Positions 13,201 to 57,776 of a DNA stretch of 64,000 nucleotides are shown here, piece by piece; position 1 is the first letter of the stretch, and every line of letters begins with the position of its first letter. Source of the stretch: Alphaproteobacteria bacterium. GTDB lineage: Bacteria > Pseudomonadota > Alphaproteobacteria > JAOXRX01. Position numbers and translations under genes: made by a program. The stretch lies in contig JAOXRX010000039.1 in assembly GCA_025800285.1 (NCBI GenBank), forward strand, positions 10,006-74,005, written 5' to 3'. The notes beneath the pieces are model-generated. The model saw only the letters and a program-made list of their open reading frames with translations, was not told the DNA's origin and ran no database searches.

Positions 13201-13460
13201 TTAAACCTGCCTAAACTAAAAATAAAGAAACTATAATAACTAAAAAAGAAAGTCCTAAGAAGAAACTAAATGTGATAACACAAATTGTCTTATAAAAATT
13301 CCAGATAAAATTAAGAGCTTTCTTCATAAGATATTAATATAAACAATGTTTTAAATAAAATCAATTTTTTATTTGATAAAACATTATTTTTGATTTATAA
13401 AATTATTTATGAAAAAACTTATTTTAATTTTAGTAATTTTATTTATTTAAAAGTTTCTTT

Positions 13461-13820
13461 TTAATTTATGATAATACCAATGATATATCCTAGAGTAATT
13501 AGTACAAAATATAATATTCCTAATATAAAGCATGAAAATAATATTGAATATTTTTTAGCCAAAGAGTTTTTATAATTAAAAAACATGGGGATTATTCTTA
13601 TAAAAATTAAAGAATAGATTAGTGTAATTATTATTGTAAAAGTTAATAATATTCTATATTCATTTATAGAATCACATTTTAAACAATATGGATTAATATT
13701 AAATAAATTTAAATTCCAAAAAATAATTTGGCAAATAGATATAATAGCATATCCAACCCAACCCAATATGAATATTGCGTTGGGAATTAACTCACTCTGT
13801 ATTATGTTTTTTATTTTCAT
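13461..13820 (-). CDS. small 4-TM membrane protein, candidate immunity protein for the upstream toxin
   Basis: 119 aa, four hydrophobic helices, starts 4 nt after the stop of the Tlde1-like gene. Confidence 0.45.
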   Translation of the reverse strand: MKIKNIIQSELIPNAIFILGWVGYAIISICQIIFWNLNLFNINPYCLKCDSINEYRILLTFTIIITLIYSLIFIRIIPMFFNYKNSLAKKYSILFSCFILGILYFVLITLGYIIGIIIN

Positions 13821-13823
13821 GTT

Positions 13824-14504
13824 TTAATATCTTACTCTTAATTCTAATTCAGTATCGTATTCTTCAAAAACATCAAGAAACTCAGACATGCTTCCTGCTA
13901 AGTCGATACAACCAGATGAACCAAAGGAAGTTCCGCCATGTATAGAAAAACCATCTCTTCCTTTCATATCATTTTCCTTATCTGGAGTCAACCATATTCT
14001 CTCGTTACCCCAAGAATCTTCTCCACCTGGCCAACTAGTATATCTTTTAATAAAAGAATAATCTTTTCTCCTTTGAACATTACTAGGAGATATCGTGTAG
14101 GTTCCTGCTGGTAAAGGTCCTTTGTTTTTTACCCCAGTAAACTCTTCTCCTTGATAATCTTCTTTTCCAGACATTGCATAACAAGCATCTACAACAGTTT
14201 TATTTTCCATTAAAGCTAAAGCAGTGCCATCAAATGTTAAATAAACTTCTATGTTTTCAATATAGCATTTGCAATTTGGATGAACAGGTAGTTTGGGTAT
14301 GCCTTCAACTTTAGTGTATGTTGTGCCATCAAGTGAAGCACAATTTTCACAAACTTTACTTGTATCGCCTTTAGTATTGTGTATTTTCCACTTTTTAATA
14401 TTTTTACCTGCTTGAGGTGTTTGGTTGGGAGTATCGCTACTGCTTCTAACAGCTCTGCCTGTGGCGTCATAATTTATATTGTCTCTACCGAATGCTCTAG
14501 TCAT
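13824..14504 (-). CDS. polymorphic-toxin-like protein: phage MuF C-terminal remnant (HPNCKC) fused to a Tlde1/DUF2778-like L,D-transpeptidase-fold domain
   Basis: KVCENCASLDGTTYTKVEGIPKLPVHPNCKCY resembles the Phage_Mu_F C-terminal signature; GPLPAGTYTI ... RDGFSIHGGTSFGSSGCIDL matches the YkuD-fold His/Cys catalytic arrangement; own SD aaggag and an upstream terminator. Confidence 0.55.
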   Translation of the reverse strand: MTRAFGRDNINYDATGRAVRSSSDTPNQTPQAGKNIKKWKIHNTKGDTSKVCENCASLDGTTYTKVEGIPKLPVHPNCKCYIENIEVYLTFDGTALALMENKTVVDACYAMSGKEDYQGEEFTGVKNKGPLPAGTYTISPSNVQRRKDYSFIKRYTSWPGGEDSWGNERIWLTPDKENDMKGRDGFSIHGGTSFGSSGCIDLAGSMSEFLDVFEEYDTELELRVRY

Positions 14505-14528
14505 ATTATACTCCTTTCTTTCTCCAAT

Positions 14529-14556
14529 AAAAAAAGCCCTGTCTTGCGACAGGGCA
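14529..14556 (-). terminator. rho-independent terminator after the DUF488 gene, upstream of the toxin gene
   Basis: hairpin gccctgtc-ttgc-gacagggc with a T-tract on the minus strand. Confidence 0.7.
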
Positions 14557-14567
14557 TTATAAAATTG

Positions 14568-15017
14568 TTAAGAAAAATGTACAATCTCAATATCAGTAAA
14601 GTATTTTTGTAAATATTCTGCTAGCAACCTGCGATGGCAATATTTAGGTTTATCTTCATAACACATTAGACAAGCATTATTTAAATTTATATCTTTAAAA
14701 ATATCAATAATATCTCTTTGTTTGATTAAGTCAATATAATCTGTTTCATATTTCTCCCAACGAACAGAAAAAGGAGCATTGCCTCTTTTTATATTCTCAA
14801 ATATTTCAATACTAGGAGCACACTCTATTTTGTGCTTATAATCTATTTTATAATATGCAAGACATTTATATAGTTCTTTCTTGCTCGCATATCCATATTT
14901 AGAGTTTGTATTCTTTAAACGAATATCTATTAAAGATTTTACTCCTGCTTTTTTAAGTAAAGAGAAAAATTCATCAGCTGATTTATTTTCAAAACCTATA
15001 GTGTATAATTTAATCAT
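14568..15017 (-). CDS. DUF488 family protein
   Basis: N-terminal TIG...SLIDIR and C-terminal LMCYEDKPKYCHRRLLAEYL patterns typical of DUF488. Confidence 0.65.
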   Translation of the reverse strand: MIKLYTIGFENKSADEFFSLLKKAGVKSLIDIRLKNTNSKYGYASKKELYKCLAYYKIDYKHKIECAPSIEIFENIKRGNAPFSVRWEKYETDYIDLIKQRDIIDIFKDINLNNACLMCYEDKPKYCHRRLLAEYLQKYFTDIEIVHFS

Positions 15018-15482: not shown

Positions 15483-15536
15483 TTTTATAAATGGCGAACT
15501 CGACAGGATTCGAACCTGTGACCTACTGCTTAGAAG
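15483..15536 (-). repeat. direct repeat of the 3' 45 nt of tRNA-Arg plus 9 nt of flank (attR-like remnant)
   Basis: 54 nt identical to 19460-19513; truncated, so not a functional tRNA. Confidence 0.85.
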
Positions 15537-15837
15537 CAGAGACAGCTTTAAAGAAATAAATCAACTAAAACAAAGTCTTAGCTAGACACACAAATCCTTT
15601 CAAAGACACTTTCGTTTTATTAATTGTTGCTAATCATTGCTATTTGTTGCCTATTATTGTCCTCCAGATGCTACCCACTTTGCTACCCATTTTATATACG
15701 ACTAACTGTTATAAAAACAGTCAGTCACAGAAAATTAAAGAAACAAATATACATTAAACAACTCTTTTTAATGCTTAGTATATTTAATATTAAAAAAGAA
15801 GGGCTTTTAAAAGCCCTTCTAAAAACAATAATAAAAT

Positions 15838-16080
15838 CTATTTTTTTATTTTATCACTTTTTTCTCGGTTTGCTTCCCAATGAAGAGGTTGTAAATTTCT
15901 AATATTATTAGAACCACCTTTGGACTTAGGATGCTTATGATCCACTTCCCAACCATACTCACCTAAAGTTCCATATGAAGGTTTTCTAATTTTATTGCCG
16001 TTAGAATCTCTTCTCCAAACATCTGGGTTTTTTCCTCTTATAGGCTTACCTTTATCCCAAATATTGTCTATTTTAGACAT
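15838..16080 (-). CDS. small HNH endonuclease
   Basis: EVDHKHPKSKGGSNNIRNLQPLHWEAN, an HNH motif with conserved His/Asn. Confidence 0.65.
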   Translation of the reverse strand: MSKIDNIWDKGKPIRGKNPDVWRRDSNGNKIRKPSYGTLGEYGWEVDHKHPKSKGGSNNIRNLQPLHWEANREKSDKIKK

Positions 16081-16143
16081 AGTTAAGTTCCCTTTCTTGA
16101 AAATACTTAGTCTAATGGGCAGAATATAATTCTACCCATAGCT

Positions 16144-16392
16144 TTACATAACTCTTTTATAATTATAGATATCTCTTATATGGTTATGAAAAAATTTACC
16201 ATGAGATGATGCATTCATTAAATCTTTAAAAAGATTTTCAGACACACCATAATATTGGTAAACACTATTATTGTGAAAACCAACTTCAAGGATATTTCTA
16301 TCATAACCAATATCATTAATCATAGAAGATTTTACATACTTTCTAGTCATCATGTATCTCCATATTATTGAGCATTTTAACCACACACTCAA
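16144..16392 (-). CDS. KTSC domain-containing protein
   Basis: 82 aa; pattern YDRNILEVGFHNNSVYQYYGVSENLFKDLMNASSHGKFF typical of KTSC domains. Confidence 0.55.
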   Translation of the reverse strand: MSVWLKCSIIWRYMMTRKYVKSSMINDIGYDRNILEVGFHNNSVYQYYGVSENLFKDLMNASSHGKFFHNHIRDIYNYKRVM

Positions 16393-16604
16393 TTATTAAC
16401 TTGACAAGGGTGTATAAGCATGATACTATCAAGTTCTCTCGTCTCGATAGGTTAAACCTTATCATTCGAATTTGAAGTCGCCATGTTAGTAGCATGTCGG
16501 CTTCTTTTAATATTGAAACACAACAAATCTTTCAATATTATTTCTTTATATCACCTTTATATCATTAAGTCAACTATAAAACTATTTTTTTATTAACTGT
16601 TAAC

Positions 16605-16997
16605 CTAACTATTAAGATTAGAAACAACTTTACTGTTTCTTACTTTTTTACTTTCTAAATCTATTTCTATCCAACCCCTCTCATCTATTCTTGTGTCAAA
16701 ATAACTTGTTTTTTCAGGCATTATATTAAAACAATTAAAAAAACTTTTTGCTGCTATATTAGCTCCATAAGCCCCCTTTCTTATTTTAATAGCTCCCTCA
16801 GCTGTTTTATCATTTAACATTTCAATACCTATCTTTTTACATTCTCTATCATAATACAAAACAACATAAGAATAATTATCTATTAAATATTTCTTTCTAG
16901 AACCTTGGTTCAAACCTATATTTCCATTTGTATTTACCGAACACCTCGGAGAAAAACTACCTCCAACTTGTGTAAATTTTTGATAAGCCATAATCAA
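16605..16997 (-). CDS. hypothetical protein (130 aa)
   Basis: ORF co-oriented inside the islet between the methyltransferase and KTSC genes; no recognisable motif. Confidence 0.4.
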   Translation of the reverse strand: MIMAYQKFTQVGGSFSPRCSVNTNGNIGLNQGSRKKYLIDNYSYVVLYYDRECKKIGIEMLNDKTAEGAIKIRKGAYGANIAAKSFFNCFNIMPEKTSYFDTRIDERGWIEIDLESKKVRNSKVVSNLNS

Positions 16998-17097
16998 CCT
17001 CCTTGCAAAATAAAAGACTATAAAAATAGTTATATACTATTTTTATAGTCTTGTCAAGCAGTTTACATCACTTAATACACCCAGTTAATAAACCACA

Positions 17098-18351
17098 CTA
17101 AAACAACTCCCCTTGTTTATCTGTGATAATTTCTTCTTTTTCTATAATCACATCTTCTATATCAAACTTTTTATCTAACATAGCTATTAAACACCTACCT
17201 ATATGATATCCTAAATTAACAGGGACTGCATTGCCTATTTGTTTATATTGAGCACACATAGAACCTTTAAACTCCCAATAATCTGGAAATGTTTGTATTC
17301 TTGCATATTCTCTAACATTTAATGGTCTAGTTTCCTCGGGATGACATCTTTCAGTTTGTTTCTGAGCTGGAGAACAAGTTAAAGTTAAACTAGGTTCATC
17401 CCATGACAACCTTCTAGCCATTCCTGTTCTTCCCCCCGTATGATAAAAACTTTTTCCCATATATTCTTTTTGAACTTCTTCAGGCAAATCTCTCCAACAC
17501 CCTCCTGCAGGAACTTGTTTTAAAACTTTATATTTCTTCTCGGGATATTTTTGTCCTTCAGACTTAGGACAATCTTTTAAAGCTTCCCTCATAGAAATTG
17601 TATAATCTTTTTCTTTTGGAAATATAAAAGGTATATTTAAGTCTTCTCTTATAACTATTATTATCAACCTTTCCCTTTTTTGAGGAACATCTAAATATTG
17701 AGATCTTAATACTTTATAATGAACTTTGTATCCCAATTCCCTTAATGCATTACACATTGTTTTTAATGTTTTACCATTATCATGTCTTAAAAGACCTTTA
17801 ACATTCTCTCCAACCGCAATTTTAGGATTAGTTTCTTTGATACATCTTGCAAATTCAAAAAACAAAGTTCCTCTTGTATCTTCAAACCCCATACTTTTAC
17901 CAGCATAACTAAATGTTTGACAAGGGAATCCTGCTTGCACTATATCAACTTTATTTCTATATTCTTTAAAATCAAGATTTCTAACATCTTCATGAACTAT
18001 GTTAGCATTAGGAAAATTAAATCTTAATGTTTCAACCGCACTTTTATCTATTTCATTTAATAATAAATGATTTAAGCCTGCATTTTCAAATCCTAAAGAA
18101 GTTCCTCCCGCTCCTGCAAAAAGTTCTATTATATTATAGTCTGTTTTTATATTACTTTTTAAAATTTGAAAATTATTATCATTAGAAACTCCATTTAATT
18201 TAGAATTTAATCTTTGCACTTCCTCCAAATCAAAAACTCTATAATTTTTCTCATCTCTTTGAGATTTTATAAGACCTTTTTTATCCCATCTTCTAATTGT
18301 ATCTACAGAGACTTCTAATTCTTCACTTACCTGATGAACTGTTAAATTCAT
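17098..18351 (-). CDS. DNA (cytosine-5)-methyltransferase with an N-terminal MerR-type HTH (SsoII/Eco47II-like architecture)
   Basis: motif I ELFAGAGGTSLGF, motif IV GFPCQTFSYAGK, motif VI VGENVKGLL; N-terminal 45 aa form an HTH (VSVDTIRRWDKKGLI). Confidence 0.85.
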   Translation of the reverse strand: MNLTVHQVSEELEVSVDTIRRWDKKGLIKSQRDEKNYRVFDLEEVQRLNSKLNGVSNDNNFQILKSNIKTDYNIIELFAGAGGTSLGFENAGLNHLLLNEIDKSAVETLRFNFPNANIVHEDVRNLDFKEYRNKVDIVQAGFPCQTFSYAGKSMGFEDTRGTLFFEFARCIKETNPKIAVGENVKGLLRHDNGKTLKTMCNALRELGYKVHYKVLRSQYLDVPQKRERLIIIVIREDLNIPFIFPKEKDYTISMREALKDCPKSEGQKYPEKKYKVLKQVPAGGCWRDLPEEVQKEYMGKSFYHTGGRTGMARRLSWDEPSLTLTCSPAQKQTERCHPEETRPLNVREYARIQTFPDYWEFKGSMCAQYKQIGNAVPVNLGYHIGRCLIAMLDKKFDIEDVIIEKEEIITDKQGELF

Positions 18352-18448
18352 TATTTCAACTCCTTTAAAAAATAAAATTCATTACTATAAATTATATATA
18401 GCAATACCCATTGCATAATGCAAGGGTTATTTTATATTTTTATAAATT

Positions 18449-19171
18449 TTATTGAAATGCTCTATCAAAAAGCTCTTTAAACAAAGGGTCTTTAATGATT
18501 TTCTTTTTATCATTTTTAACTATATCAGATATTATATGAGGCAAAACATTGTATAAGTCATAGATAGCATTCTTATCTCCAGTTGCTATTTCATAAAAAG
18601 TAGCTCCATCAATTTCTCTAATATTTTTATTCTTAGGTCTTCTTTTCCCTGCTTTTCTATTATCAGATGGAGTAAATTCTTTATCAAATCTCTTTTTAGT
18701 TAATATGGCAACATAATAAGCAACATATCCTTCATATTTAGACTTAGTTAGAGATTTTAAATCATCATATATTGCAACTTTATGATTACCTTTTGTAGTG
18801 TTAAATTTATTTTTAATTTCAGCTATAATTTTTTTATCTTTATTTACTAAATCTGCCACTCCTCCAGTTTTTAAGTCTTTCCAACCAATTACTCTTCCTA
18901 GAATCTTTTGATGAAAATTGCCAATAGCATTCTGCAAACTTTTTTGGATTTGTCTTGATTTTTCAGTAGCTAACCATTCTTCTAAAGACATCTTATGAAA
19001 AGAAGCATCAAATAAAGCAGAAAAAGGATCTACAATATTAGAATGCAAATCTTTTTCTATATCTTTAGATTTAACTTCTAAAACATCAACTATCTCCTGA
19101 CATAATTCATATAAATCTTTTTCACTAATCCATTTAAGTTTTTTCATAAATAACCACCTTAATTTAAACAT
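18449..19171 (-). CDS. putative type II restriction endonuclease (PD-(D/E)xK), partner of the adjacent methyltransferase
   Basis: GGVADLV ... IIAEIKNK gives a D...EIK nuclease core; immediately upstream of the methyltransferase in the same orientation; gene sizes (240/417 aa) resemble Eco47II/Sau96I-type systems. Confidence 0.5.
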   Translation of the reverse strand: MFKLRWLFMKKLKWISEKDLYELCQEIVDVLEVKSKDIEKDLHSNIVDPFSALFDASFHKMSLEEWLATEKSRQIQKSLQNAIGNFHQKILGRVIGWKDLKTGGVADLVNKDKKIIAEIKNKFNTTKGNHKVAIYDDLKSLTKSKYEGYVAYYVAILTKKRFDKEFTPSDNRKAGKRRPKNKNIREIDGATFYEIATGDKNAIYDLYNVLPHIISDIVKNDKKKIIKDPLFKELFDRAFQ

Positions 19172-19468
19172 ACTTATGTGTTTATCACTATATATTTAAA
19201 AAATCAAGTTTTTTAATTGCACCAATTTTGCACTATGACTGACTGATAGTTTTTCAGATAACCTGCAACAGCTAACACATTAAAATATAACAATATTATT
19301 GTAACATACTGCCATAATAAATTATATTTTTGAAAAAAACATCGTTGAAAGCTACTGTCACAAAGAGTTTGCAAGTTTGCTACCCACCTATAAAATCACT
19401 ATTTTTTAAACTTAAATTTAAACAAATAAAAAACCCGTCAAAGCTAGTGCTGACGGGGTTTTATAAAT

Positions 19469-19545
19469 GGCGAACTCGACAGGATTCGAACCTGTGACCT
19501 ACTGCTTAGAAGGCAGTTGCTCTATCCAGCTGAGCTACGAGTCCT
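19469..19545 (-). tRNA. tRNA-Arg (anticodon TCT)
   Basis: 77 nt cloverleaf folded by hand; anticodon loop cttctaa; CCA encoded; followed by a terminator hairpin. Confidence 0.85.
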
Positions 19546-19774: not shown

Positions 19775-20491
19775 TTAATTAATTCCTTTATACATTTCCA
19801 TTAATGCTTTTTTTCTAGCTTGTAATTTAACAGGAGCTTTTTTCTCTTCCAGACTTACCTCATCATGACCCTGATTTTTATCTGAGAATTTATCTCTTAT
19901 ATACATCTCTGCTTTATATATATTACTATCTATAAAGTCAACTATATCTCTACTAGTCTCTCTAGGGCCATACATTAAAAAAGCCAACCCAGCCCCTAAA
20001 GAAGTTGTTGTAATAGATGTAAACCTTAAAGTCCTTCTAACACCCTCTTTGGCAAGCTCTATTTTACGAAGCTTTTTACCTCTTACCATATAATCTTCAG
20101 ACAATTTATCTTTTGATGTAACTTGAGCTGCAAAATCATGCAACTCTATATTTTTAACATTAGGATCCTTAACAGCAGATATAATTGCTTGATAACCACC
20201 TAAAATACTTCTATAGTAGCACTCTTTATTTCTTTTGTGTTTATAATACCTTCTTAGCACTATTTTCTTTGGTTTTAATAATGCTTTACCCAAAATAGAT
20301 TTTTTTCTATATTTAGATAAAAAATTAGCATATTTACCATGCCATTTCGTAGCAATTTCATTAGTATAAGCATATAAATAAAGATACTTCTCATCTATAG
20401 TACCATCAAATTTAGGTTTTAATCTTTTTCTAAAAAATAAATTAAGAGAACGAAAGCCTCTCCATGTTTTACCTATTACTTTACCTATCAT
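19775..20491 (-). CDS. hypothetical basic protein (238 aa)
   Basis: ORF only; K/R-rich; no family recognised. Confidence 0.4.
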   Translation of the reverse strand: MIGKVIGKTWRGFRSLNLFFRKRLKPKFDGTIDEKYLYLYAYTNEIATKWHGKYANFLSKYRKKSILGKALLKPKKIVLRRYYKHKRNKECYYRSILGGYQAIISAVKDPNVKNIELHDFAAQVTSKDKLSEDYMVRGKKLRKIELAKEGVRRTLRFTSITTTSLGAGLAFLMYGPRETSRDIVDFIDSNIYKAEMYIRDKFSDKNQGHDEVSLEEKKAPVKLQARKKALMEMYKGIN

Positions 20492-20652: not shown

Positions 20653-21078
20653 TTGGGAGAAGATATTATGGATTATGTACAAAGAGACTCAAGAGAGGTT
20701 TGCAGTAGAGTTGAAGCCCACACTAATAACTTAGGAGGATTCCTGGATGCTTTTGCTGTACTTTACCTTGCATCTTTAAAAGCGATAGCTTATACAGCAA
20801 TATTTTATATTAAAAGGCCAAAAACTTTTTATCACCATGCGCTGTTTGCATCCACCTGTTTTTTAGGTTCACAATTTGCATCTAGTGGAGCGACAGATTT
20901 ATTGGCTGATAAATTTATAGAATACAAAAGATCTAAGTATGTTAAAAGCTGTTTAAAAACACCAGAAAACACAAACAAAAAAGATATTATAAAAAAATTT
21001 AGAGAAACAGTAAAAAAAGAAAATGCTTCAATAACAACAAAAAAACAAAGACCTACAAATTTAACAGCAAGCATTTAA
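20653..21078 (+). CDS. hypothetical protein (141 aa)
   Basis: ORF only; one hydrophobic segment; basic C-terminus. Confidence 0.35.
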   Translation: MGEDIMDYVQRDSREVCSRVEAHTNNLGGFLDAFAVLYLASLKAIAYTAIFYIKRPKTFYHHALFASTCFLGSQFASSGATDLLADKFIEYKRSKYVKSCLKTPENTNKKDIIKKFRETVKKENASITTKKQRPTNLTASI

Positions 21079-21162: not shown

Positions 21163-22419
21163 TTAATCATTAGAAATATTTTTAAAAATATTTAAAACCC
21201 CCTTGACTCTACCATCATTAATTCTAGGTCTAGAGTCAATATTATTATCAACAGATGCAATATATTTAGGAATTACATTTACAATACTACTTTTTAATTT
21301 GTCTAAACCGCCCCACTTATCATACTTACTAATATTCACCCCTGAATAACCAAGACTTACATATAAATTATTTTCCCCATTAGTTTCTTTTATAAATAAA
21401 GAAGAGCTTTTAACATTAGACCTCTTATTATAAGAATTATACATAACAACATTATCTATAACAGGAAGACCTCTAGTATCATTGTATAAATTCAAAGTTT
21501 CCTTTAAGAAAAATGGATAAAGATCTTTTGGATTTACAACACTCAATGCTTCATCAATATCATCTATAGCCTTAAAATATTTTTCATTAAATGGATCGTA
21601 TAATTCTAAATTAATCATATTAATATTAGCTAACATCTCTTTACTTTGCCTTGAATCTATAGAACTTTTTTTAACCAATATAGAAAAGTCTTTCCACATA
21701 GGACTTTCAAAATAAGATTTCAAAAACCCCCTACCATTATCATTACGATCAGACTGGAAAGCATCTAAGGGACTAACTTTTACCTCCTCAAAATATATAA
21801 TTAATGTTTTATCTTTAAGATTTGATACAATCCTATTTAAACCAGACACAGCATCATTTACTTCTTTCTTTGATAACGCATCCATTTCAGTTTTTGAAAC
21901 GGTTTCCATATACTCTTCATAATTAAAAAATACTTTTGGCAAATTAGTTTTATTTTTTATACCAATCCCTGTTGTTACTAACCAGCCTGAAAGAGCCCCT
22001 CCCAAAACCAAACAAGTTGTATTTTTTAACCAATTCTTAACACTATTTAAAGCTTTGTCCCCATCTTTTCTATCACCAAGCATTTTAGAGTATATAGAAT
22101 TTCTATGCTTTTTGAATCTTTTCAAAAAGATTCTCAAAGAATTACTTCTGTCTTTCCCCTGTTCTAAATCCTTAATTAAAATATTCTCTATACAACTATT
22201 GGTTTTTCTGACATGATCACAAGTATCTTTAAAACAATCAAAAGAAATCTGATTACCGCACTTAAAAACATCTTCAATATTATAAAGATTAACTATATCC
22301 TCTGTTTTTAAGACCTCCGCCTTGTTTAAAGTTTTGTTTACAGATTGCACTTTAAAGTTAGAAATCGACATATTACCCCCTTTAAAAATCATTTTTTTAC
22401 TTTTATAAGTATAACACAC
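21163..22419 (-). CDS. hypothetical protein (418 aa) with one predicted TM helix
   Basis: ORF only; sits next to the large membrane protein; no family recognised. Confidence 0.45.
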   Translation of the reverse strand: MCYTYKSKKMIFKGGNMSISNFKVQSVNKTLNKAEVLKTEDIVNLYNIEDVFKCGNQISFDCFKDTCDHVRKTNSCIENILIKDLEQGKDRSNSLRIFLKRFKKHRNSIYSKMLGDRKDGDKALNSVKNWLKNTTCLVLGGALSGWLVTTGIGIKNKTNLPKVFFNYEEYMETVSKTEMDALSKKEVNDAVSGLNRIVSNLKDKTLIIYFEEVKVSPLDAFQSDRNDNGRGFLKSYFESPMWKDFSILVKKSSIDSRQSKEMLANINMINLELYDPFNEKYFKAIDDIDEALSVVNPKDLYPFFLKETLNLYNDTRGLPVIDNVVMYNSYNKRSNVKSSSLFIKETNGENNLYVSLGYSGVNISKYDKWGGLDKLKSSIVNVIPKYIASVDNNIDSRPRINDGRVKGVLNIFKNISND

Positions 22420-22528: not shown

Positions 22529-25500
22529 ATGCTATCAAGTAAGAAAAAGACAAGATTTACTAAAAAGAAAATATCTAAAAAAATATTTATGCCAGAGTTT
22601 AACCGAAGCTTTTTACCTATAAAAATATCTATAGACTCTTTTGTTAGATTAATAGCAGGGATTTTCTCTCATGCGGGTTTATTAGACGAGGAAGATGATT
22701 TATTTAACACAAACCAATTATTAACATTTTCTGATTTTGGAGAAATGATTTTTGTTTCAGCAAAAAATATTAACTGGAGGAGTAAGAAATCAATACCACA
22801 AATTTGCTTATGGTTATCTTCAATTGCCTTAGTTATTTTTGTTTTATCAACACTACTTATCTTACTGTTTTCTTTAGCTACAGGAACTGCTAATGCAGCA
22901 TTAGCAATGGCTCAAGAAAACACAGGGGAGGATGTTAGCTCTTTATTTACATTAACTGAAGAGGTTGCTAAACATGAACATGGAACAACATGGTTAAACT
23001 GGATGTTTAATTTAGCTGGAGAATATAAACCTGCTGTGTTTGGTGAGGGAGGAACTGCTGCCAAACCAGGTATTGCCTTAGGATTTCAATCTATGCTTAC
23101 ATATTATAGTTCTACTTGTTTAATATTAGGCTCTATAATGGTTTCTTATTTATTTGTTGACAATATTGTTGACACAGCATCAACAGGTAAATTCATGGGG
23201 CAAGGCGATGAAGTATGGGCATATCCTAGAATACTAATAGCTATGTGTTTATTAGTACCTCTACCTAATGGCTCTGGTTTAAATATAGGTCAAAATCTTA
23301 TTATATCAATTTCTAAAGCGGGGTCAATTTTTGCAACAAATACATGGTTAGCTTTTCTAAAAAACTTAGGTGGCGAAGAAGGTAATGATTTAATATCTCC
23401 TGAAAGCTTTGATTTAGATAGTTTATCAAAAAATATGTTTGATTCATTTGTTTGTTATTGGGGAACTGCTATAGGTAATAAACTTCAAATTACTGACAAT
23501 AAAGATGGTATACCTCCTCATAAAACAAATGAGATAAAAAAAGAAAAAAGTGAATTATCAAAAGAAATACAATCCTTAAATGGTAAAATTGGCGGCGACT
23601 GTGAAATAGTTCCTTATAATAATGGGAAAATATCATCTTATTGGTATAAAGGAGATTGGAATGATTATACAAAAGAAGCTAGAAAAGAAGAATGTGAAGA
23701 TGATTTTTCGGATCCTAATGATTTCAGAATTACAGAACTTAAAGATATAATAAAGAAGGCAGACAACATTGGGTCAAAAGAATTAATGTTAGAACAAATG
23801 TATGGAGGACTAGAAAACCCAACTTCGATTAAGATTACAAAAGCTTCAAAAGCAGATTCTTTATCTTATGACTTTAATCTTGGTTCAGGTAGCAATGCTA
23901 TTACAATGGCTGGAGCTTGTGGTTCTTATGGACCTGCATTTTTCCAACAAGAATTTGAAGAAAAAGATGCAACTAGAGATTGCATATCAGAGAATCCTCA
24001 TGACTTAAACAACTTAATAACTTGTACGGAAGCAAAAATGCAAGCTAATGTAAAAAAAGGATTTTTAGCAGCTTTAAACAAAGAAAATGTTTTTGGATTT
24101 ATATCTGACACTTCTGAAGAAGCTGCGACATCACAATTTCAAATACCTAGTGTCCCTAAAGGAGGTATTGATGCTTATGTTGTAAACAAATCTGTAAAAT
24201 TAATTTCTGAGAAAAATTTTAAAAATGAAAAGTATAAAAAAGCCATAAAAGCAGCAAAAATAACTCCCCCTACACCAAACAGTTTATCAAGTTATGCTTA
24301 TGATTTTGTCCTTGCATCTTTATACTCAGATAAAAGTGGTAAAAATTTTATACCAAAAGGAATTGAACCTCTTAATTATAAAAACTTTGAAGACTCTTTA
24401 GATCTTATTAAAGATAATACTATATCTCTTCAGTCAGAAGAATATGGAAAACGCTTTAGTGAAAATATGGCTCCATACTTTAAAATAGCCAACGAATCTT
24501 TTAGAGATTTAAATTCTCATCTATTTGGTAATGCCAAAGAAAACAAAAAACCTGCAGAAACCGATATAGCTAATCAGATGCAAAAAGGATGGATAGCAGC
24601 TGGGGCTTTTTATTCTCTATTATCTCAAATAAACGGATTAGGTATAAAAGCAACAAGTGCAAGCTATGCTTACTCTTCCCCTATCTCATCTTTTACAGGT
24701 AGTCGTTCTATAAAAATAGATACATATTCATCTGATAAGATGACTGGATTCATACCTTATCTTGACTATATATTAACAAAAAAAGATCTTATTATTGGCA
24801 ATATAGAGAAAAAAACAACAGGAATAAGCTCAACAGATGAAAGCTCCAGCATGGGATCAAATGTTGCCATGTTAGCTGACATAATGAATACTGCTACTGG
24901 TTTAGCAGGAGCTAGTATTACAAATATAAATGGCGCTAATCCCTTCGCAGACTTAGTTAACCTTGGGCATTTATTAATAAATACAGCAACCTATACTAAA
25001 ATTTTAACTACCATGAAAGCTGAAACATATAAATCTATAGGTAACCTTCTTGCTAAAATTGGTGGAGCAATACCATATGGAGCTGGTATTGGCTCAGTAT
25101 TAGCATCTAAAATACCTAGCTATAAAGGGGAAATCATAAAGCAATTGGCTATACCTTTAAACATATTTCAAGGTATGATATTTAGTTTTGGTATAACTCT
25201 AGCCTATTATTTACCTTTGGTTCCTTTTATAAAGTTTATAATGGGAGGTATAGGATGGTTCGCTGCTGTCTTCCAAGCAGTAATTGGAACTCCTTTACTT
25301 TTATTAGGACATATAACTGTAAAAAAAGGTAGCATGATACTTGGACCAGACAGAGGTAAATACATGATGATTCTTGAAATATTCTTAAGGCCTGTTTTAA
25401 TGGTATTTGGCATGATAGGATCAATGCTACTACTATCTGTTGCAACATATATATTTAATGACTTATATAACTTTGCTTGGGGTGTTAGAAGCATGAATAG

Positions 25501-26068
25501 TGTTTGGGGAGGGTCAATACTATCTTTTGCCTCATATTTTAAAGGTCTAGCATATATAAGTATATATGTAACTACAATATACACTATAGCTACAAACTGC
25601 TTCAAACTTATAGATGATGTACCAGGTAAAGTCATAAGTTGGATGGGTGGCGGAGCCGGATATTCATTGAGCGGTGCTGAAGATGCTGTAGAACAAGGCG
25701 CTGGAAGTGCTGGTAAGTTCATAGAAAAAAGTATTGATGCATCAAGACAAAAATCATTAGATGATGAACAAACTAATAAGAAAAAGAATATTGCAAGAGA
25801 TGACAGAATTAAAGATACTATTGTAAAACATGGATCCGAAAAAGGAAATATGTTAGCCGATATGGAAGAAGGGAAATACGATGCAAATAAAGGTGAGTAT
25901 GTTGACATGTCAGATCAAGAGAAAAAAGAAGCTAAACAAAGGCTTGAAGATCATAGATCTGGTGGCGACCCTTATGGTATTAGAGCTAAAGAAAACGCTT
26001 CTACTTCCTCAACTGGGTTGAATCAGGACGGTAATATGAATATTGAGCCTCCTAAAAAAGACTCTTAA
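22529..26068 (+). CDS. large polytopic inner-membrane protein, possibly T4SS-associated (VirB6/TrbL-like or DotA/TraY-like architecture)
   Basis: 1179 aa; N-terminal TM helices, roughly 500 aa hydrophilic middle domain, C-terminal cluster of 5-6 TM helices (residues ~830-1010), charged tail; family call is by architecture only. Confidence 0.4.
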   Translation: MLSSKKKTRFTKKKISKKIFMPEFNRSFLPIKISIDSFVRLIAGIFSHAGLLDEEDDLFNTNQLLTFSDFGEMIFVSAKNINWRSKKSIPQICLWLSSIALVIFVLSTLLILLFSLATGTANAALAMAQENTGEDVSSLFTLTEEVAKHEHGTTWLNWMFNLAGEYKPAVFGEGGTAAKPGIALGFQSMLTYYSSTCLILGSIMVSYLFVDNIVDTASTGKFMGQGDEVWAYPRILIAMCLLVPLPNGSGLNIGQNLIISISKAGSIFATNTWLAFLKNLGGEEGNDLISPESFDLDSLSKNMFDSFVCYWGTAIGNKLQITDNKDGIPPHKTNEIKKEKSELSKEIQSLNGKIGGDCEIVPYNNGKISSYWYKGDWNDYTKEARKEECEDDFSDPNDFRITELKDIIKKADNIGSKELMLEQMYGGLENPTSIKITKASKADSLSYDFNLGSGSNAITMAGACGSYGPAFFQQEFEEKDATRDCISENPHDLNNLITCTEAKMQANVKKGFLAALNKENVFGFISDTSEEAATSQFQIPSVPKGGIDAYVVNKSVKLISEKNFKNEKYKKAIKAAKITPPTPNSLSSYAYDFVLASLYSDKSGKNFIPKGIEPLNYKNFEDSLDLIKDNTISLQSEEYGKRFSENMAPYFKIANESFRDLNSHLFGNAKENKKPAETDIANQMQKGWIAAGAFYSLLSQINGLGIKATSASYAYSSPISSFTGSRSIKIDTYSSDKMTGFIPYLDYILTKKDLIIGNIEKKTTGISSTDESSSMGSNVAMLADIMNTATGLAGASITNINGANPFADLVNLGHLLINTATYTKILTTMKAETYKSIGNLLAKIGGAIPYGAGIGSVLASKIPSYKGEIIKQLAIPLNIFQGMIFSFGITLAYYLPLVPFIKFIMGGIGWFAAVFQAVIGTPLLLLGHITVKKGSMILGPDRGKYMMILEIFLRPVLMVFGMIGSMLLLSVATYIFNDLYNFAWGVRSMNSVWGGSILSFASYFKGLAYISIYVTTIYTIATNCFKLIDDVPGKVISWMGGGAGYSLSGAEDAVEQGAGSAGKFIEKSIDASRQKSLDDEQTNKKKNIARDDRIKDTIVKHGSEKGNMLADMEEGKYDANKGEYVDMSDQEKKEAKQRLEDHRSGGDPYGIRAKENASTSSTGLNQDGNMNIEPPKKDS

Positions 26069-48673: not shown

Positions 48674-50050
48674 ATGTACTCAAATAAACTGAATAAAAAA
48701 GGAAAATTTTATATGTACAGACCATCAAAAAGAGAAAAAGACGAATTAAGACAGTTTTCAATAGAACCAGATTATATGGGAAACCCAGAAGGTTCTTGCA
48801 TGGTTAAAGCGGGAAACACTCATGTATTATGCGTTGCTACTGTAGAAAAGTCAGTGCCAATGTTTTTAAGAGGAACTGGTAAAGGCTGGGTAACTGCTGA
48901 GTATGGCATGCTACCTCGTTCAACAGATCAAAGAATGAGAAGAGAAGCTACTATTGGCAAACAAAGCGGAAGAACTCTGGAGATACAAAGACTAATTGGC
49001 AGATCTTTAAGAGCTATCATAGATATGGATAAGCTAAACGAATATCAAATTAAAATAGATTGTGATGTTATCAGAGCCGATGGAGGCACTAGAACAGCAG
49101 CTATATCAGGAGCTTATGTTGCTCTTAGCAAAGCTGTGGACTTCATGTTAGAAAAAGGGATAATAAATGAAAATCCAATCTATGAACAAGTGGCTGCCGT
49201 ATCTTGTGGCATCTTCAAAGGAGAGCCTGTATTAGATTTAGATTTTTATGAAGATTCAAATGCTCAAGCTGACTCTAACTTTGTTTTAACAGCTAGCGGT
49301 AAAATAATAGAAGTTCAAGGTACTGCCGAAAAAGAGCCTTTCTCTAAATCAGAACTAATGGAGCTTTTATCTCTAGCAGAAAAAGGAGTTTCAGAAATAG
49401 CTCAAGAACAAAACAGAGCTCTTAAAAAAGGTGCTAACCGTAGAAAATTCAAACCAGGTGATGAAATAATTATTGCCACTCATAACATGGGTAAATTTAA
49501 AGAGTTTAGAAATGCCTTAGCTCCATATACAGAGAATGTTCTATCAGGAAATGATATAAACTTACCAGATGTAGAAGAAACAGAAGACACTTTTGAAGGT
49601 AATGCTAAGCTTAAAGCTATAGCTGGAGCAAAGCATACTGGTAAAATTGTAATAGCTGATGATAGCGGTTTTTGTGTAAAAAAATTAAAAGGAAGACCGG
49701 GAGTATATTCAAAAAGGTTTGCTGTTGAAGTTGGGAATGGAAAAGAAAACTATCCTGCAGCAATTGCAAAATTAAATGAAGAGCTAGGAAACAACAAAGA
49801 CAGAAGAGCAAGTTTCTGTTGTTGTTTAGTAATTGCTTGGCCAGATGGACATACAGAGACTCTAAATGGTAGAGTTAACGGCAAACTATTAAAAACATTA
49901 CAAGGTGAAGATGGTTTTGGTTTTGACCCTGCATTTGTTCCTAATGGACACGATAGAACTTTTGCTGAAATGAGTTTAGAGGAAAAGCAGAAACTTTCTC
50001 ATAGAGGAAAAGCTTTATCTTCTTTAATTGAAGAAGTATTTGAAAAGTAA
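48674..50050 (+). CDS. rph: in-frame fusion of ribonuclease PH (N-terminal ~250 aa) and the RdgB/HAM1 dITP/XTP pyrophosphatase (C-terminal ~200 aa); likely start near 48713
   Basis: Rph motifs ([14 protein letters not shown]) then linker [10 protein letters not shown], then RdgB motifs ([31 protein letters not shown]) with no intervening stop. Confidence 0.8.
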
Positions 50051-50388: not shown

Positions 50389-51906
50389 TTAATTAGAACT
50401 AAATACCCAACCTTTCCCCTCTAAAGTTGCTTTAGCAGATGAACATGTAGCATCTGAACAAGTATTGCCCCCAACTCTAATACTTCCTGTATTTTTCAAC
50501 TTAGCATTTGAATTAGAAATAGTTGATAGAAAACTAGAGTATATAGATGAAGACACTGAAGATGAGTAATCAATTACTGATAAGTTCGATGCATTCATCA
50601 TACTATTTAAATAAACTACTTTAGTTGTATCTAATCCACTAAGGTTTAAATTAGCTATATTATTTAAACCAGTATAACTATCTCCACCAAACATATTAGT
50701 CATATTTGTAACCTTGCTTGTATCAAAATTACTTATATCTAGTGTAGTTAAGCTCTCTAGGCCATAAAACATACCATTAGGGTCGACAAGACTACTTGTA
50801 TTAAAGTTGCTCACATCTAGACTTGTTAGCTTTTTCATACCGCCAAACATAGCAGCTGTATGTGTTACATTACTTGTATCAAATGAACTAACATCTAGTG
50901 TAGTTAAGCTCTCTAGCCCCCAAAACATATCACCCATATTAGTAACCTTCCTTGTATCAAATGAACTGATATTTAGACTTGTTATATTATTCGCATTCTC
51001 AAACATACTATTCATATTTGTTACATTACTTGTATCTAGACCTCTCAAATCAATATTTGTTATATATTCAGCATTATAGAACATCTCTGACATATCAGCC
51101 ACACCGCTGGTATCACAATCCCCCGCAGTAAAAGAAGTCAAACGAGAATAAGAAAAAGAGCGATTAAAGCTTTTCCAACCCACATTGCCTAAGTTTTCAA
51201 CTGTTTTCATTTTTGTAGGAACATGGCTAATATAAGGGAAATCCCCTGTTATTTTAACAGTCTTTCTTCCTCCAGTACTATATGTATGTGTAATATGGTA
51301 ATTTGTAAAATCATTACAATCACTGTCATCATCCCAACAAATTCTACCATTATATCCACTTGAAACTTTAGTAGGGAAAATTATTGTATCTCCAGCATTA
51401 ACTTCCCATGTTGTAACAAAAGGATTTTCTGCCACAGCATCACTAACATCAATAGAAGCGATTTTAGTTCCTTCTTGAACTTTATTAACTACTGCTGATA
51501 GGGTTATGTTTACTGTTCCACTTGCTTTTGCTTTTGCGATTGTTAGAGTTCTATTTGCTCCAGTTCCTGTAATGCTAACATCACTCGCTAAAACAACATC
51601 TTCATTCGCTAAACTAAAGCTAACAGCTACATCGTCTGCATTTATACCTCCTGAAGGAGTCAAAGTAATAGCAAATGTTTTATTTGTATCACTAGCTTTC
51701 ATAGAAATGCTTTCAACCGCTATACTTACACTTCCTTGTTGTTCCGGATTTTCACTACCATCAAATGGAGTGGCAGGGTTAGCTTGTAAACTACCTGATA
51801 AATTCTCGAAATAATAATAATCTCTTGCATGTGAAATTCCAACTGCTGAGCTTATAAACGAAACAGCTATAGCTGAAAGTAAAAGCTTATTAGATAATTT
51901 TTTCAT
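50389..51906 (-). CDS. BspA-type leucine-rich repeat surface protein (bacterial surface protein 26-residue repeat family) with signal peptide
   Basis: at least 7 tandem copies of L..LDTSNVTNM..MF...N.IT.L.IS.FDT; N-terminal signal peptide; beta-rich N-terminal domain. Confidence 0.75.
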   Translation of the reverse strand: MKKLSNKLLLSAIAVSFISSAVGISHARDYYYFENLSGSLQANPATPFDGSENPEQQGSVSIAVESISMKASDTNKTFAITLTPSGGINADDVAVSFSLANEDVVLASDVSITGTGANRTLTIAKAKASGTVNITLSAVVNKVQEGTKIASIDVSDAVAENPFVTTWEVNAGDTIIFPTKVSSGYNGRICWDDDSDCNDFTNYHITHTYSTGGRKTVKITGDFPYISHVPTKMKTVENLGNVGWKSFNRSFSYSRLTSFTAGDCDTSGVADMSEMFYNAEYITNIDLRGLDTSNVTNMNSMFENANNITSLNISSFDTRKVTNMGDMFWGLESLTTLDVSSFDTSNVTHTAAMFGGMKKLTSLDVSNFNTSSLVDPNGMFYGLESLTTLDISNFDTSKVTNMTNMFGGDSYTGLNNIANLNLSGLDTTKVVYLNSMMNASNLSVIDYSSSVSSSIYSSFLSTISNSNAKLKNTGSIRVGGNTCSDATCSSAKATLEGKGWVFSSN

Positions 51907-54029: not shown

Positions 54030-54536
54030 TTATTTATTTTTCATATAGCTATATGATATTGAATCTATTTGGCATAGAAAAAAGATTGTATTGATATTAT
54101 CAATTTTAATATTTCTTATTTCTTCTACTTTTATATTAAGTTCTTTTTCAAACCATTGAGCAACGAGATGTCTATGACAAAACTCTCCTTCTTTTTCATA
54201 ACAGAGCAATATAGCATCACTACCAAGTTCTTTAAAAACCTTTGTAGCATCTAGAGGAGCTAGAATTTCTTCTTTAAACCTTTTTATATATCTTTGAACA
54301 TCTCCAGTTTTTCTATATTCTTTATATATACTCCAAGAAGGAGCAAGCTTTTTATACTCCCTGCCCTTATAAGCATCGGGGCTACATCCAGATATAGAAA
54401 CTGCATTTATATTATTACCATGTTTTGCAAAATTAGATGTTTTCATAAAATGAAATATATCATATATTAAACTTATACAATCATAAATTTGACTTTTAGC
54501 TAAAATTGTTATAACATTAATTACATATAAAAACAA
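54030..54536 (-). CDS. DUF488 family protein (YeaO-like); likely true start near 54446
   Basis: AILLCYEKEGEFCHRHLVAQWF and SPDAYKGREYKKLAPSWSIYKEY match YeaO/DUF488 patterns. Confidence 0.6.
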   Translation of the reverse strand: MFLYVINVITILAKSQIYDCISLIYDIFHFMKTSNFAKHGNNINAVSISGCSPDAYKGREYKKLAPSWSIYKEYRKTGDVQRYIKRFKEEILAPLDATKVFKELGSDAILLCYEKEGEFCHRHLVAQWFEKELNIKVEEIRNIKIDNINTIFFLCQIDSISYSYMKNK

Positions 54537-56697: not shown

Positions 56698-57776
56698 TTG
56701 TAGATGTCAAGTAATTCGTGGACAGTTTTCATTAAATTCTATAGGAGTTTTCCCATTTAATCCTTGATGAGGTCTTTCCTCATTGTAATAACATAGATAC
56801 TCTGCTAGGTTTTGTTTAAAATCCTCAATGCTATCAAAGTCTGTGTCTTCTATTAAATCTTCATGCAAGGTTTTCCAAAACCTCTCTATCTTTCCATTGG
56901 TTTGGGGCCTATATGGCTTTGTGTACCTGTGTTTTATTCCATAATATTTTAATAATCTCTCAAATGGATTTGTATCTTTGTTTTTCTTATCTGGTCCTTG
57001 ACCAAACTCACTGCCGTTATCTGATAATATTTCTTTAAACTTAATATCTGTAAACTCACTAAATGCTCCAAGCATATCCATACTTGCAAACATCACTGTT
57101 AAAGATTTTTTATCTTCTATTAACTCTACAAAAGCTATTCTTGTAGCAGCATCAATTAATCCAACCAAATAGTGACTCTTATTAACTTCTAATAATCCTT
57201 TAGGTAAGTTATAACAGTCTATATGACCTAGCTCTCCCGCTTTTTCTTTTATTATCTTCCTTCTATTATTTTTCATTTTCTTTTTCAACCTCTGCATTCC
57301 TTTATCTCTTAATATATTATATATGGTTGATGGACTAGGAGTGTACTTATGATATTTTCTTTTTAAGATACTATGGATCTCATACCTAGAGCAACCTTTC
57401 TCCCTTAACTTTATAATACTTTCCTCTATATTGTAAAGAACCGTCCTTCTTTTTTTAAATTTCGGACCTCTTTTTAATGGAGCTACTCCTTTAGGACTAG
57501 GGTTTTGCTTATATTTATTTATATATTTATAAAATGCTTGCCTAGATATATGATGACTATCATATAAATCTTTTACATATTTATACCTTTTATTTTTACC
57601 TTGCTTTATTAAATTATGCTCTTTTATTAAGTTTTCTATAAATAAAAAATTATTCCTTAATAATGTTTCGTCTTGTGAATTCTTTAACTTTATGCTCATT
57701 ATTCGTTCCTTTCCTTCGTTAAATTCATCTTCTTATATTTAACGAAAACTGTCCACGAATTATTTAACATCTACAA
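56698..57776 (-). mobile_element. IS481-family insertion sequence with 31-33 bp imperfect terminal inverted repeats, inserted into a palindromic repeat element
   Basis: left end gtagatgtcaagtaattcgtggacagttttc; right end reverse-complement gtagatgttaaataattcgtggacagttttc (29/31); flanking TTC/ATTC duplication. Confidence 0.85.
56707..57699 (-). CDS. IS481 family transposase (DDE)
   Basis: N-terminal HTH; catalytic core SDNGSEF ... RPQTNGKIERFWKTL typical of IS481/IS3-like DDE integrases. Confidence 0.85.
   Translation of the reverse strand: MSIKLKNSQDETLLRNNFLFIENLIKEHNLIKQGKNKRYKYVKDLYDSHHISRQAFYKYINKYKQNPSPKGVAPLKRGPKFKKRRTVLYNIEESIIKLREKGCSRYEIHSILKRKYHKYTPSPSTIYNILRDKGMQRLKKKMKNNRRKIIKEKAGELGHIDCYNLPKGLLEVNKSHYLVGLIDAATRIAFVELIEDKKSLTVMFASMDMLGAFSEFTDIKFKEILSDNGSEFGQGPDKKNKDTNPFERLLKYYGIKHRYTKPYRPQTNGKIERFWKTLHEDLIEDTDFDSIEDFKQNLAEYLCYYNEERPHQGLNGKTPIEFNENCPRIT

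Follow-up and report, generated by a model that had tools for sequence, protein, structure and literature searches.

Introduction

The locus described here consists of two adjacent genes on the minus strand of a 64,000-nucleotide stretch of DNA (the window; contig JAOXRX010000039.1, positions 10,006 to 74,005) from an alphaproteobacterium. The first encodes a toxin of 226 aa (13824..14504), and the second, which follows it directly, is a candidate immunity gene for a 119-aa membrane protein (13461..13820). Colicin M with Cmi and pesticin with Pim are periplasm-acting bacteriocins with membrane-anchored immunity. The gp16 protein of phage T7 is an ejected virion protein that opens the peptidoglycan for genome entry. 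Tldi1, the partner of Tlde1a in Salmonella Typhimurium, is a soluble periplasmic protein. Tlde1a is a type VI secretion system (T6SS) effector acting by L,D-carboxypeptidase and transpeptidase exchange, and its structures are available (PDB 7UMA, 7UO3 and 7UO8; PMC9638812). MuF toxins form a widespread polymorphic family whose biological role and delivery are unknown (PMC11699363). MuF has been treated as a capsid-targeting domain, and MuF toxins adjoin prophage portal genes (PMC5576092, PMC3482391, PMC11699363). The 2017 survey of these toxins recognized the N-terminal MuF domain types PF04233, PF06152, MuF3 and MuF4, and its main text does not contain the words peptidoglycan, lysozyme or DUF2778 (PMC5576092).

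The window toxin resembles Tlde1a in its fold, its Pfam family, the register of the Arg/His/Ser/Gly/Cys residues, the lack of a signal peptide and a small gene downstream (PMC9638812). It differs in an identity of ~22%, in having Ser in place of H129, in its MuF-tail module and in the absence of T6SS genes from the 64 kb. The partner is a membrane protein with three transmembrane (TM) segments, unlike Tldi1 as described above, the two sequences not being directly compared. With MuF polymorphic toxins (Jamet et al. 2017, PMC5576092; Apk2 and Bxa, PMC11699363) the locus shares a MuF-related module at the N-terminus, a toxin part that varies at the C-terminus and, further downstream, a small open reading frame (ORF). 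That ORF (<150 aa in MuF toxins) lies directly downstream, with 119 aa at a distance of 3 nt, and the N-domain is constant in front of variable toxin domains; a place after a portal gene in a (pro)phage head module was not found in the window. In contrast to those toxins, only the last ~50-80 MuF residues are kept, with a score below the profile cut-off, next to no portal and in no prophage, and the predicted products are periplasmic peptidoglycan hydrolases, whereas the characterized MuF toxins act in the cytoplasm.

The same Tlde1 subfamily, at 40-45% identity, forms the C-terminal cassette of Rhs proteins (L056 and L071, the latter also with a three-TM gene) and, in L085, lies N-terminally in a giant protein whose C-terminal part has GGxGxD-type repeats; these carriers have an Rhs core or repeats and not a MuF tail. 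(Fetched loci are numbered with L and related proteins with P.) As in ejected virion proteins of the T7 gp16 type and in the lysozyme domains of polyvalent or virion proteins (PMC5512222), a wall hydrolase is tied to a capsid-associated module, but those are structural phage parts without an immunity partner, while here we find dispersed chromosomal cargo with partners. Colicin M and pesticin are likewise wall-directed toxins without a signal peptide, for which immunity acts at the periplasmic face as proposed here, and one MuF-tail relative has a Pesticin domain. Unlike them, the window toxin has no recognizable receptor-binding or TonB-box translocation domain, and its N-terminal module is only ~88 residues long.

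We read the window toxin as a member of an undescribed MuF-type polymorphic toxin family of small-genome Alphaproteobacteria from gut and rumen, with peptidoglycan as the predicted target, and the two genes probably form a toxin/immunity cassette of the polymorphic-toxin type. A sequence-only reading of the window had proposed a stand-alone MuF-tail/Tlde1-like toxin with a tandem immunity candidate, and this was essentially right as judged from profiles, the AlphaFold2 (AF2) fold, longer parent proteins and synteny. By analogy with Tlde1a, the toxin would trim or exchange D-Ala4 of the peptidoglycan stem peptides in the periplasm of the target and thereby weaken the wall. The 119-aa three-TM protein, probably co-translated with the toxin, would sit in the inner membrane and, at the periplasmic face, protect producer and kin against toxin arriving from outside, if it behaves as family knowledge suggests. 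Beyond that reading, the analysis brings out a family with longer parents, a polymorphic range of wall-degrading domains as partners, the three-TM partner as a recurrent trait of this Tlde1 subfamily and the absence of the MuF-defining phage context.

The Tlde1-like domain of the toxin

The C-terminal 138 residues of the toxin (residues 89-226; 13827..14240, minus strand) are predicted by Pfam, profile and Foldseek comparisons to be a Tlde1-like, YkuD-fold cysteine enzyme domain resembling L,D-transpeptidases and L,D-carboxypeptidases. Both profiles to which the sequence-only reading had pointed, DUF2778 and YkuD, matched above their curated cut-offs: Tlde1_dom (PF10908) with 42.6 bits against 30.1, over residues 110-215, and YkuD (PF03734) with 24.5 bits against 23.4, just above. 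The protein is listed at NCBI as MCV6599294.1, 'MAG: DUF2778 domain-containing protein [Alphaproteobacteria bacterium]' (MAG, metagenome-assembled genome). A phmmer search of PDB sequences with the single toxin sequence gave no match. A profile of 29 homologous domains matched Salmonella Tlde1a (7UMA/7UO8) end to end (E = 2e-6), and in this alignment R183, H189, S196, G198 and C199 correspond to R115, H121, S128, G130 and C131 of Tlde1a. The roles of the Tlde1a catalytic residues, and the motif H-x(n)-(S/T)-H-G-C-h with its catalytic His and Cys, have been described (PMC9638812). The peptide RDGFSIHGGTSFGSSGCIDLAG, quoted in the earlier reading, is residues 183-204.

The AF2 model, built from 22 sequences, had a pLDDT of 84.4 and a pTM of 0.77. 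Foldseek placed Tlde1a at the top of the PDB (7uo8, 7uo3 and 7uma; E 6e-7 to 1.5e-6, target-normalised TM-score 0.55-0.60), followed by B. subtilis YkuD and then by the mycobacterial L,D-transpeptidases LdtMt1/2, which is in agreement with the YkuD fold expected beforehand. Where Tlde1a has its capping subdomain, the window protein has a small helical insert. The YkuD match just above its cut-off could also be that of a housekeeping L,D-transpeptidase that remodels the wall of its own cell. This is highly improbable, as the best matches are to Tlde1 and not to Ldt enzymes, the 226-aa protein has neither a signal peptide nor a TM anchor or any other hydrophobic segment (hydropathy), and the gene lies in a strain-variable island and has polymorphic-toxin relatives.

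The N-terminal MuF-tail module and its relatives

Residues 1-88 (14241..14504, minus strand) appear to be a minimal MuF core, or tail. They contain DATGR at residues 13-17 and the pattern W39..H42..C52xxC55..G60..H75-P-N-C78-x-C80. In three alignments (A3, A5 and A9), W39, C52, C55, G60, P73, H75, P76, N77, C78 and C80 were invariant and H42 nearly so, and this Cys/His pattern suggests a zinc knuckle. PHROGs 4728, 115, 595 and 1657 (head morphogenesis or minor head proteins) matched residues 29-89 with E values of 1e-5 to 1e-4, TIGR01641 matched weakly (E = 0.044), and Pfam Phage_Mu_F aligned residues 22-81 with its positions 48-110 of 112. The modeled module superposed on phage minor capsid, head-morphogenesis and MuF-like proteins of BFVD over 49-54 residues at 1.4-1.8 Å. 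In tblastn against IMG/VR, residues 5-88 aligned to the C-terminal core of canonical phage MuF proteins of 300-330 aa, with 'DATGRAV' opposite their 'ARTE..RA' motif; the N-terminal part of canonical MuF, of ~200 residues, is absent from the window protein. The MuF signature that had been recognized in KVCENCASLDGTTYTKVEGIPKLPVHPNCKCY (residues 50-81) is supported by the PHROG matches, the superpositions and the longer homologues, in which Phage_Mu_F scores 32.2 bits against its cut-off of 29.6, but not by the protein's own Pfam score, which is below that threshold.

A scan with one genome per species gave 139 relatives, overwhelmingly from MAGs of rumen, gut and faecal Alphaproteobacteria (RGIG, MGYG-HGUT, Candidatus Enterousia), many of them belonging to the order Rs-D84 (Enterousia). 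A metagenome scan with the window protein found nothing. Many of the relatives have 365-376 aa and consist of an N-domain of ~186 residues, a linker and Tlde1, the N-domain following the pattern MQTPKFLR…DATG[RQ]…acidic helix…β-hairpin…W.WHSE..C..C…HPNCRC. A full-length MuF-toxin parent, for which a search had been suggested, is therefore at hand in rumen and gut Alphaproteobacteria. The AF2 model of the long N-domain had a pLDDT of 77 and matched phage proteins only over its last ~50-66 residues, so the possibility that it is a full MuF domain was rejected.

The N-domain was found fused to Tlde1 (PF10908), Phage_lysozyme (PF00959, 103 bits), GH108 (PF05838) with PG_binding_3, and Peptidase_M23 (PF01551); in a sister strain (L003) it also occurs in a lysozyme-like protein of 474 aa. 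Being joined to four different peptidoglycan-degrading domains, it would act as the constant 'trafficking' end of a polymorphic family. Several paralogues can occur in a genome; they differ in their wall-degrading domain, and each is accompanied by a partner gene of its own. A hidden Markov model search of 1.84 billion representatives found ~25 clusters with the whole N-domain and 1,464 proteins with the tail, in many of which the tail is at the extreme N-terminus. The partner domains of the 86 best tail relatives were SAA (15), Phage_lysozyme (13), GH108 (8), M23 (7), Tlde1 (4) and PG-binding domains, with M15 and Pesticin once each and a single portal-MuF fusion. Short 'tail-first' toxins appear to be a general architecture. 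The SAA fusions are P0080 and 14 others among P0090-P0224 (serum-amyloid-A-like PF00277, best E = 5e-25), and P0082-P0089 are proteins of ~200 aa with a MuF tail and a PF00545 ribonuclease domain.

The window protein aligns with both ends of the long N-domain. It has lost ~40 N-terminal and ~85 internal residues relative to parents of ~375 aa, and the sister strain shows a further deletion of 99 nt. Such losses might mark a decaying relic, that is, a truncated MuF-Tlde1 remnant which is inactive or undelivered and kept by chance or for its immunity gene. We consider this improbable. The ORF is intact and has a strong Shine-Dalgarno (SD) sequence, all catalytic and zinc-knuckle residues are conserved, and the AF2 model folds with high confidence. 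The short architecture is common to P0003, with Tlde1 and 60% identity to the window toxin, and to P0079, in which an M23 domain comes after MPFKDRLNFPVDATGRMIRDDD…HPNCKC. We therefore take it for a module in evolution and not for a one-off truncation, and the cassette, which had been called an orphan, is instead a shortened member of a polymorphic family.

The 119-aa membrane protein

Hydropathy analysis indicated three TM segments in the 119-aa protein (~12-35, 56-80 and 91-119). It had been described as a four-helix membrane protein starting 4 nt after the toxin stop; the position (its ATG begins at the fourth nucleotide) and the membrane character were confirmed, while the helices number three. 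According to the positive-inside rule (a K-rich N-terminus and the loop NYKNSLAKKY), the protein is predicted to have its N-terminus inside and its C-terminus outside, with a periplasmic loop of 20 residues containing C46xxC49. It had no match in Pfam, NCBIfam, PHROG or PADLOC. The sole sequence homologues are an identical copy in L003 and a 124-aa protein beside P0003 (L002), which is 44% identical and keeps the CxxC, the corresponding toxins being 60% identical.

The recurrence of such a gene was examined in a BLAST cluster of 115 toxin-family genes from the fetched loci. Within 150 nt downstream of 75 of them there was an ORF of 80-170 aa with at least two TM segments predicted by hydropathy, mostly three. 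These 75 include nearly all Tlde1-type genes, the Rhs-borne gene of L071 and the Archangium genes of L074 and L079, and the three-TM partners of Tlde1-type genes have ~110 aa. Non-Tlde1 MuF fusions were not followed by a three-TM ORF. The lysozyme, GH108 and M23 fusions and the 474-aa fusion of L003 are instead adjacent to a small gene with a signal peptide or lipoprotein box, the pattern expected of effector/immunity pairs acting in the periplasm. Four clusters of three-TM ORFs were compared with hhalign, and c2 and c5 were related (probability 97.8%). A single family comprising all four was rejected, as the window cluster and c1 showed no detectable similarity to the others. The synteny of toxin and small downstream gene, kept across ~60 loci, supports the immunity reading. 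In L021 (2541-3466, minus strand) an 82-aa orphan fragment of a Tlde1 C-terminus is followed by two more three-TM ORFs of 105 and 112 aa; the arrangement is similar to the arrays of displaced toxin tips and spare immunity genes in other polymorphic toxin loci.

A toxin without a signal peptide next to a small three-TM protein could also be a holin/endolysin-like autolysis pair, in which the membrane protein lets a cytoplasmic wall hydrolase into the periplasm for programmed lysis, by which particles, vesicles or DNA, for instance, would be set free. Class I holins are small three-TM proteins of similar size and topology, and phage endolysins with a YkuD fold exist. Holins typically carry a charged C-terminal tail, but the 119-aa protein ends inside its third TM segment (...GYIIGIIIN) without one. 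Moreover, endolysins lack a MuF domain, the lysozyme, GH108 and M23 fusions are paired with signal-peptide or lipoprotein genes and not with membrane proteins, the Rhs-borne Tlde1 has a three-TM partner as well, and no other lysis or phage genes lie nearby. Autolysis is thus decidedly improbable. Because of the recurrent partners, the Rhs and repeat-protein carriers, and the orphan fragment with spare three-TM genes in L021, we prefer the polymorphic-toxin reading over a holin/endolysin pair.

Phage links and delivery

No T6SS, type IV secretion system or phage head gene was detected in the 64-kb window by Pfam and PHROGs on ~50 of the 62 ORFs of at least 100 aa, four more being covered by Pfam domains listed for an identical contig. 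When all window ORFs of at least 100 aa were compared by BLAST with 5,618 ORFs of 130 IMG/VR loci, the toxin alone matched. The statement in the sequence-only reading that no T6SS or phage head genes are visible therefore holds for the 64 kb. The T6SS markers VgrG, Hcp, PAAR and MIX type were found neither in the 64 kb nor among the recurrent flank families of 88 related loci. Clustering of the flanking ORFs of these 88 loci showed that only immunity genes, DUF488 and housekeeping genes recur, and a conserved delivery machine in the flanks was rejected, as no such family recurs. The gene upstream of the window toxin encodes a DUF488 protein and not a portal.

By estimate from the fetched flanks, phage genes lie near only 2-3 of ~60 distinct loci. 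A structural module was present in L037 only; L026 has a terminase and a ParB-like gene, and L028 one phage-like gene. In L037 (147-12414 of WRHR01000007.1, MAG isolate Nt197P3bin125), a Tlde1/three-TM pair and a MuF-M23/lipoprotein pair are two insertions in a small podovirus-like module that encodes a major head protein, two tail proteins, a tail-fibre N-domain and a TerL-like protein of 201 aa, and the Tlde1 gene comes just after the tail genes. The L037 backbone is shared by 50 IMG/VR contigs (~4-17 kb, most 10-14 kb), with capsids 55-78% identical, most of them 70-78%. Since these relatives lack both pairs, the effectors of L037 are phage-borne cargo and not structural parts.

Given such links, the toxin might be a virion protein, with the MuF tail anchoring a wall enzyme in the capsid of a resident prophage, from which it is ejected along with the DNA, as in the case of T7 gp16, solely to open the peptidoglycan of the recipient for genome entry; the membrane gene would then serve superinfection exclusion or another purpose. 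The only known role of MuF is that of a minor head protein in portal/terminase phages, and injection has been predicted for effectors fused to it (PMC5512222, PMC3482391). Lysins with a Tlde1 domain or of the YkuD type are also encoded by phages, the relatives include one portal-MuF fusion, and the Tlde1 gene of L037 directly follows tail genes. Nevertheless, we judge a virion protein to be quite unlikely: the window has no phage genes, few of the distinct loci are near any, the genomes hold several paralogues with different wall-degrading domains and their own partner genes, Rhs toxins carry the same Tlde1 subfamily, and the L037 backbone exists in 50 contigs without these genes. The scarcity of phage-flanked loci, the lack of IMG/VR relatives of the N-terminal part of the long N-domain and the cargo nature of the L037 genes also weigh against a simple prophage explanation.

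For a toxin of the polymorphic type, we tentatively suggest that the MuF tail docks it into a phage-derived particle encoded elsewhere, from which it is ejected into the envelope of the recipient. Transport as cargo of a contact-dependent secretion system is a possibility that we find rather doubtful, and release by lysis or vesicles is distinctly unlikely. An N-terminus of the TonB-box or bacteriocin type was rejected, as no such motif was seen on reading the sequence.

Several observations weigh against these interpretations. With regard to toxin and immunity, the His that precedes Gly-Cys in Tlde1a, H129, is replaced by Ser197 in the window protein and by Ser or Ala in each of the 29 relatives. 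This residue positions D-Ala4 in Tlde1a (PMC9638812), and with its replacement across the subfamily the enzymes may not have the same activity as Tlde1a. The 119-aa protein exposes only ~20 periplasmic residues, which offer little surface for the inhibition of an enzyme, and its cluster showed no detectable similarity to the other three-TM families (hhalign probability ~1-2%). In addition, L003 and L004 carry an allele (L003 10001-10582, L004 2169-2750) in which an in-frame deletion of 99 nt (window 14206-14304), lying between two TTGATGGCAC repeats, destroys the zinc knuckle. It takes out the HPNCKC half of the knuckle and restores the 'DGT' with which the Tlde1 domain begins, and the immunity gene is identical. 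As this allele keeps Tlde1 and the immunity gene, either the tail is dispensable or that copy is disarmed. The L003 and L004 contigs were assembled from other samples, and at least L003 is from a near-identical strain. With regard to delivery by a capsid, Pfam Phage_Mu_F (PF04233) reached only 18.7 bits in the window protein, no portal, terminase or capsid gene occurs in the 64 kb, the 50 IMG/VR contigs with the L037 backbone are devoid of MuF and Tlde1 genes, and the N-terminal part of the long N-domain had no relative in 2.9 million IMG/VR contigs.

Organization and genomic setting of the cassette

The toxin ORF proposed earlier at 13824-14504 is real, with an ATG start, a GGAG 6 nt upstream and the two quoted peptides at the residues given above. 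The SD-like sequence AAAGGAG lies at 14511..14517 (minus strand) and is kept in L003 and L002. Between the stop of the DUF488 gene and the toxin start there is a terminator-like hairpin (14529..14555, minus strand), consisting of a stem region at 14536-14555 (8 bp with six G-C pairs and a 4-nt loop) followed by a run of seven T (14529-14535). Its folding energy is -21.2 kcal/mol (z = -4.25), and none of 200 shuffles folded equally well. L002 and L003 likewise have a hairpin, a T-run and AAAGAAAGGAG ahead of the toxin gene, despite different upstream genes. The element therefore travels with the cassette and marks its conserved 5' boundary.

The gene had been regarded as an independent unit with a terminator. 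The hairpin stands, but independent transcription is not supported: only 31 nt separate the terminator from the toxin ATG, which leaves no room for a promoter, and none is evident. A TGTACA-16-TATAAT match extends exactly to the hairpin stem and, speculatively, could start transcripts within the 5' arm of the hairpin. Downstream, the gap of 3 nt between the toxin TAA and the ATG of the 119-aa ORF makes translational coupling likely. This ORF carries no NCBI accession, and as the accessions of the flanking proteins are consecutive (…293, …294), it is unannotated in the NCBI record. A MORN gene 260 nt beyond the cassette, noted in the earlier reading as following it, is unlinked; it was rejected as a third component, as a 306-aa gene intervenes in L003 and the neighbor in L002 is ychF. 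A hydrophobic ORF of 38 aa, MKKALNFIWNFYKTICVITFSFFLGLSFLVIIVSLFLV (window 13211-13327, minus strand), stops 10 nt ahead of the MORN gene start; it may encode a small membrane peptide or have arisen by chance, the DNA being AT-rich.

The window has a GC content of 30.5% and consists mostly of housekeeping genes, such as those for MnmE, CtpA, GAPDH, FBA, HemN, Era and HtpG, along with a GyrB/ParE-family topoisomerase subunit, LptD, BamD, SerRS and RecN; its GAPDH shares 64% identity with the enzyme of an Enterousia MAG. The intracellular-symbiont setting of the earlier reading gained no support. The cassette is located at the edge of a strain-variable region downstream of tRNA-Pro and tRNA-Arg. 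L003, from another sample, is 98.6-99.4% identical in the shared DNA and has wholly different genes between the tRNAs and the cassette, including the 474-aa MuF-tail effector with its lipoprotein partner. At the edge of this tRNA-Arg-linked strain-variable island, the cassette is horizontally mobile cargo.

A perfect direct repeat of 54 nt (15483-15536 and 19459-19512), made up of the 3' 45 nt of tRNA-Arg(tct) and 9 nt more, brackets an insertion of 3,976 bp. The bracketed segment (15537-19458) looks like a mini genomic island integrated at tRNA-Arg and encodes an Eco47II-type restriction enzyme, a MerR-fused C5 methylase, HNH and KTSC proteins and a protein of 130 aa, with no integrase. The DUF488 gene upstream of the toxin (14568-15017, minus strand) matches the PADLOC defence candidate PDC-M45C over its full length (E = 1.9e-41). 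In 13 other fetched loci (L006-L009, L017, L018, L021, L024, L025, L044, L049, L076 and L089), near-duplicates among them, DUF488 likewise lies no more than a few kb from the cassette, and a second gene, DUF488-N3a (54030-54536, minus strand), is found 40 kb away in the window. This proximity may reflect a functional link or only a shared location in conflict islands.

Between the tRNA pair and hemN there are four ORFs with no Pfam or PADLOC match: one of 1,179 aa (22529-26068, plus strand), inside which a 233-aa ORF runs antisense, and those at 21163-22419 (minus strand), 19775-20491 (minus strand) and 20653-21078 (plus strand). The sole PHROG match among the four, that of a 418-aa ORF to a function-unknown family, was marginal (E = 0.005). 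Elsewhere, a 458-aa ORF (48674-50050, plus strand) combines both domains of RNase PH with a Ham1/RdgB-type NTP pyrophosphatase. An IS-type transposase with an rve integrase core (56707-57699, minus strand) and a 505-aa DUF285/leucine-rich-repeat protein (50389-51906, minus strand) lie amid housekeeping DNA.

Implications

The recognized catalytic partners of this MuF tail are peptidoglycan-degrading enzymes, whose action is confined to the periplasm and whose genes nearly always lie outside phages. For the destination of MuF-tagged cargo, damage to the wall and immunity in the periplasm offer a clean read-out, and a family that keeps the MuF tail alone suggests that the tail by itself is a functional address. 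In the ~110-aa three-TM partners we would have a type of immunity to Tlde1-type enzymes that is new, and the window copy is unannotated publicly.

A broader idea, which we regard as unlikely, is that the MuF zinc-knuckle of ~50-80 residues, freed from phage heads, is the address tag of an unrecognized delivery route, either a domesticated phage-like particle with its genes elsewhere or a phage-independent contact system. Through it, gut Alphaproteobacteria of the Rs-D84/Enterousia kind, genome-reduced and dependent on partners, would inject Tlde1, lysozyme, GH108 and M23 effectors into neighbors, to kill competitors or to breach the walls of the cells they live on, and the three-TM proteins would form a new immunity class against toxins of the L,D-transpeptidase type. 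Members of the order Rs-D84 (Enterousia) have genomes of <1 Mb and are proposed to depend on other cells (PMC12306168). That bacteria with such small genomes keep several effector/immunity pairs suggests that breaching walls may be central to their lifestyle.

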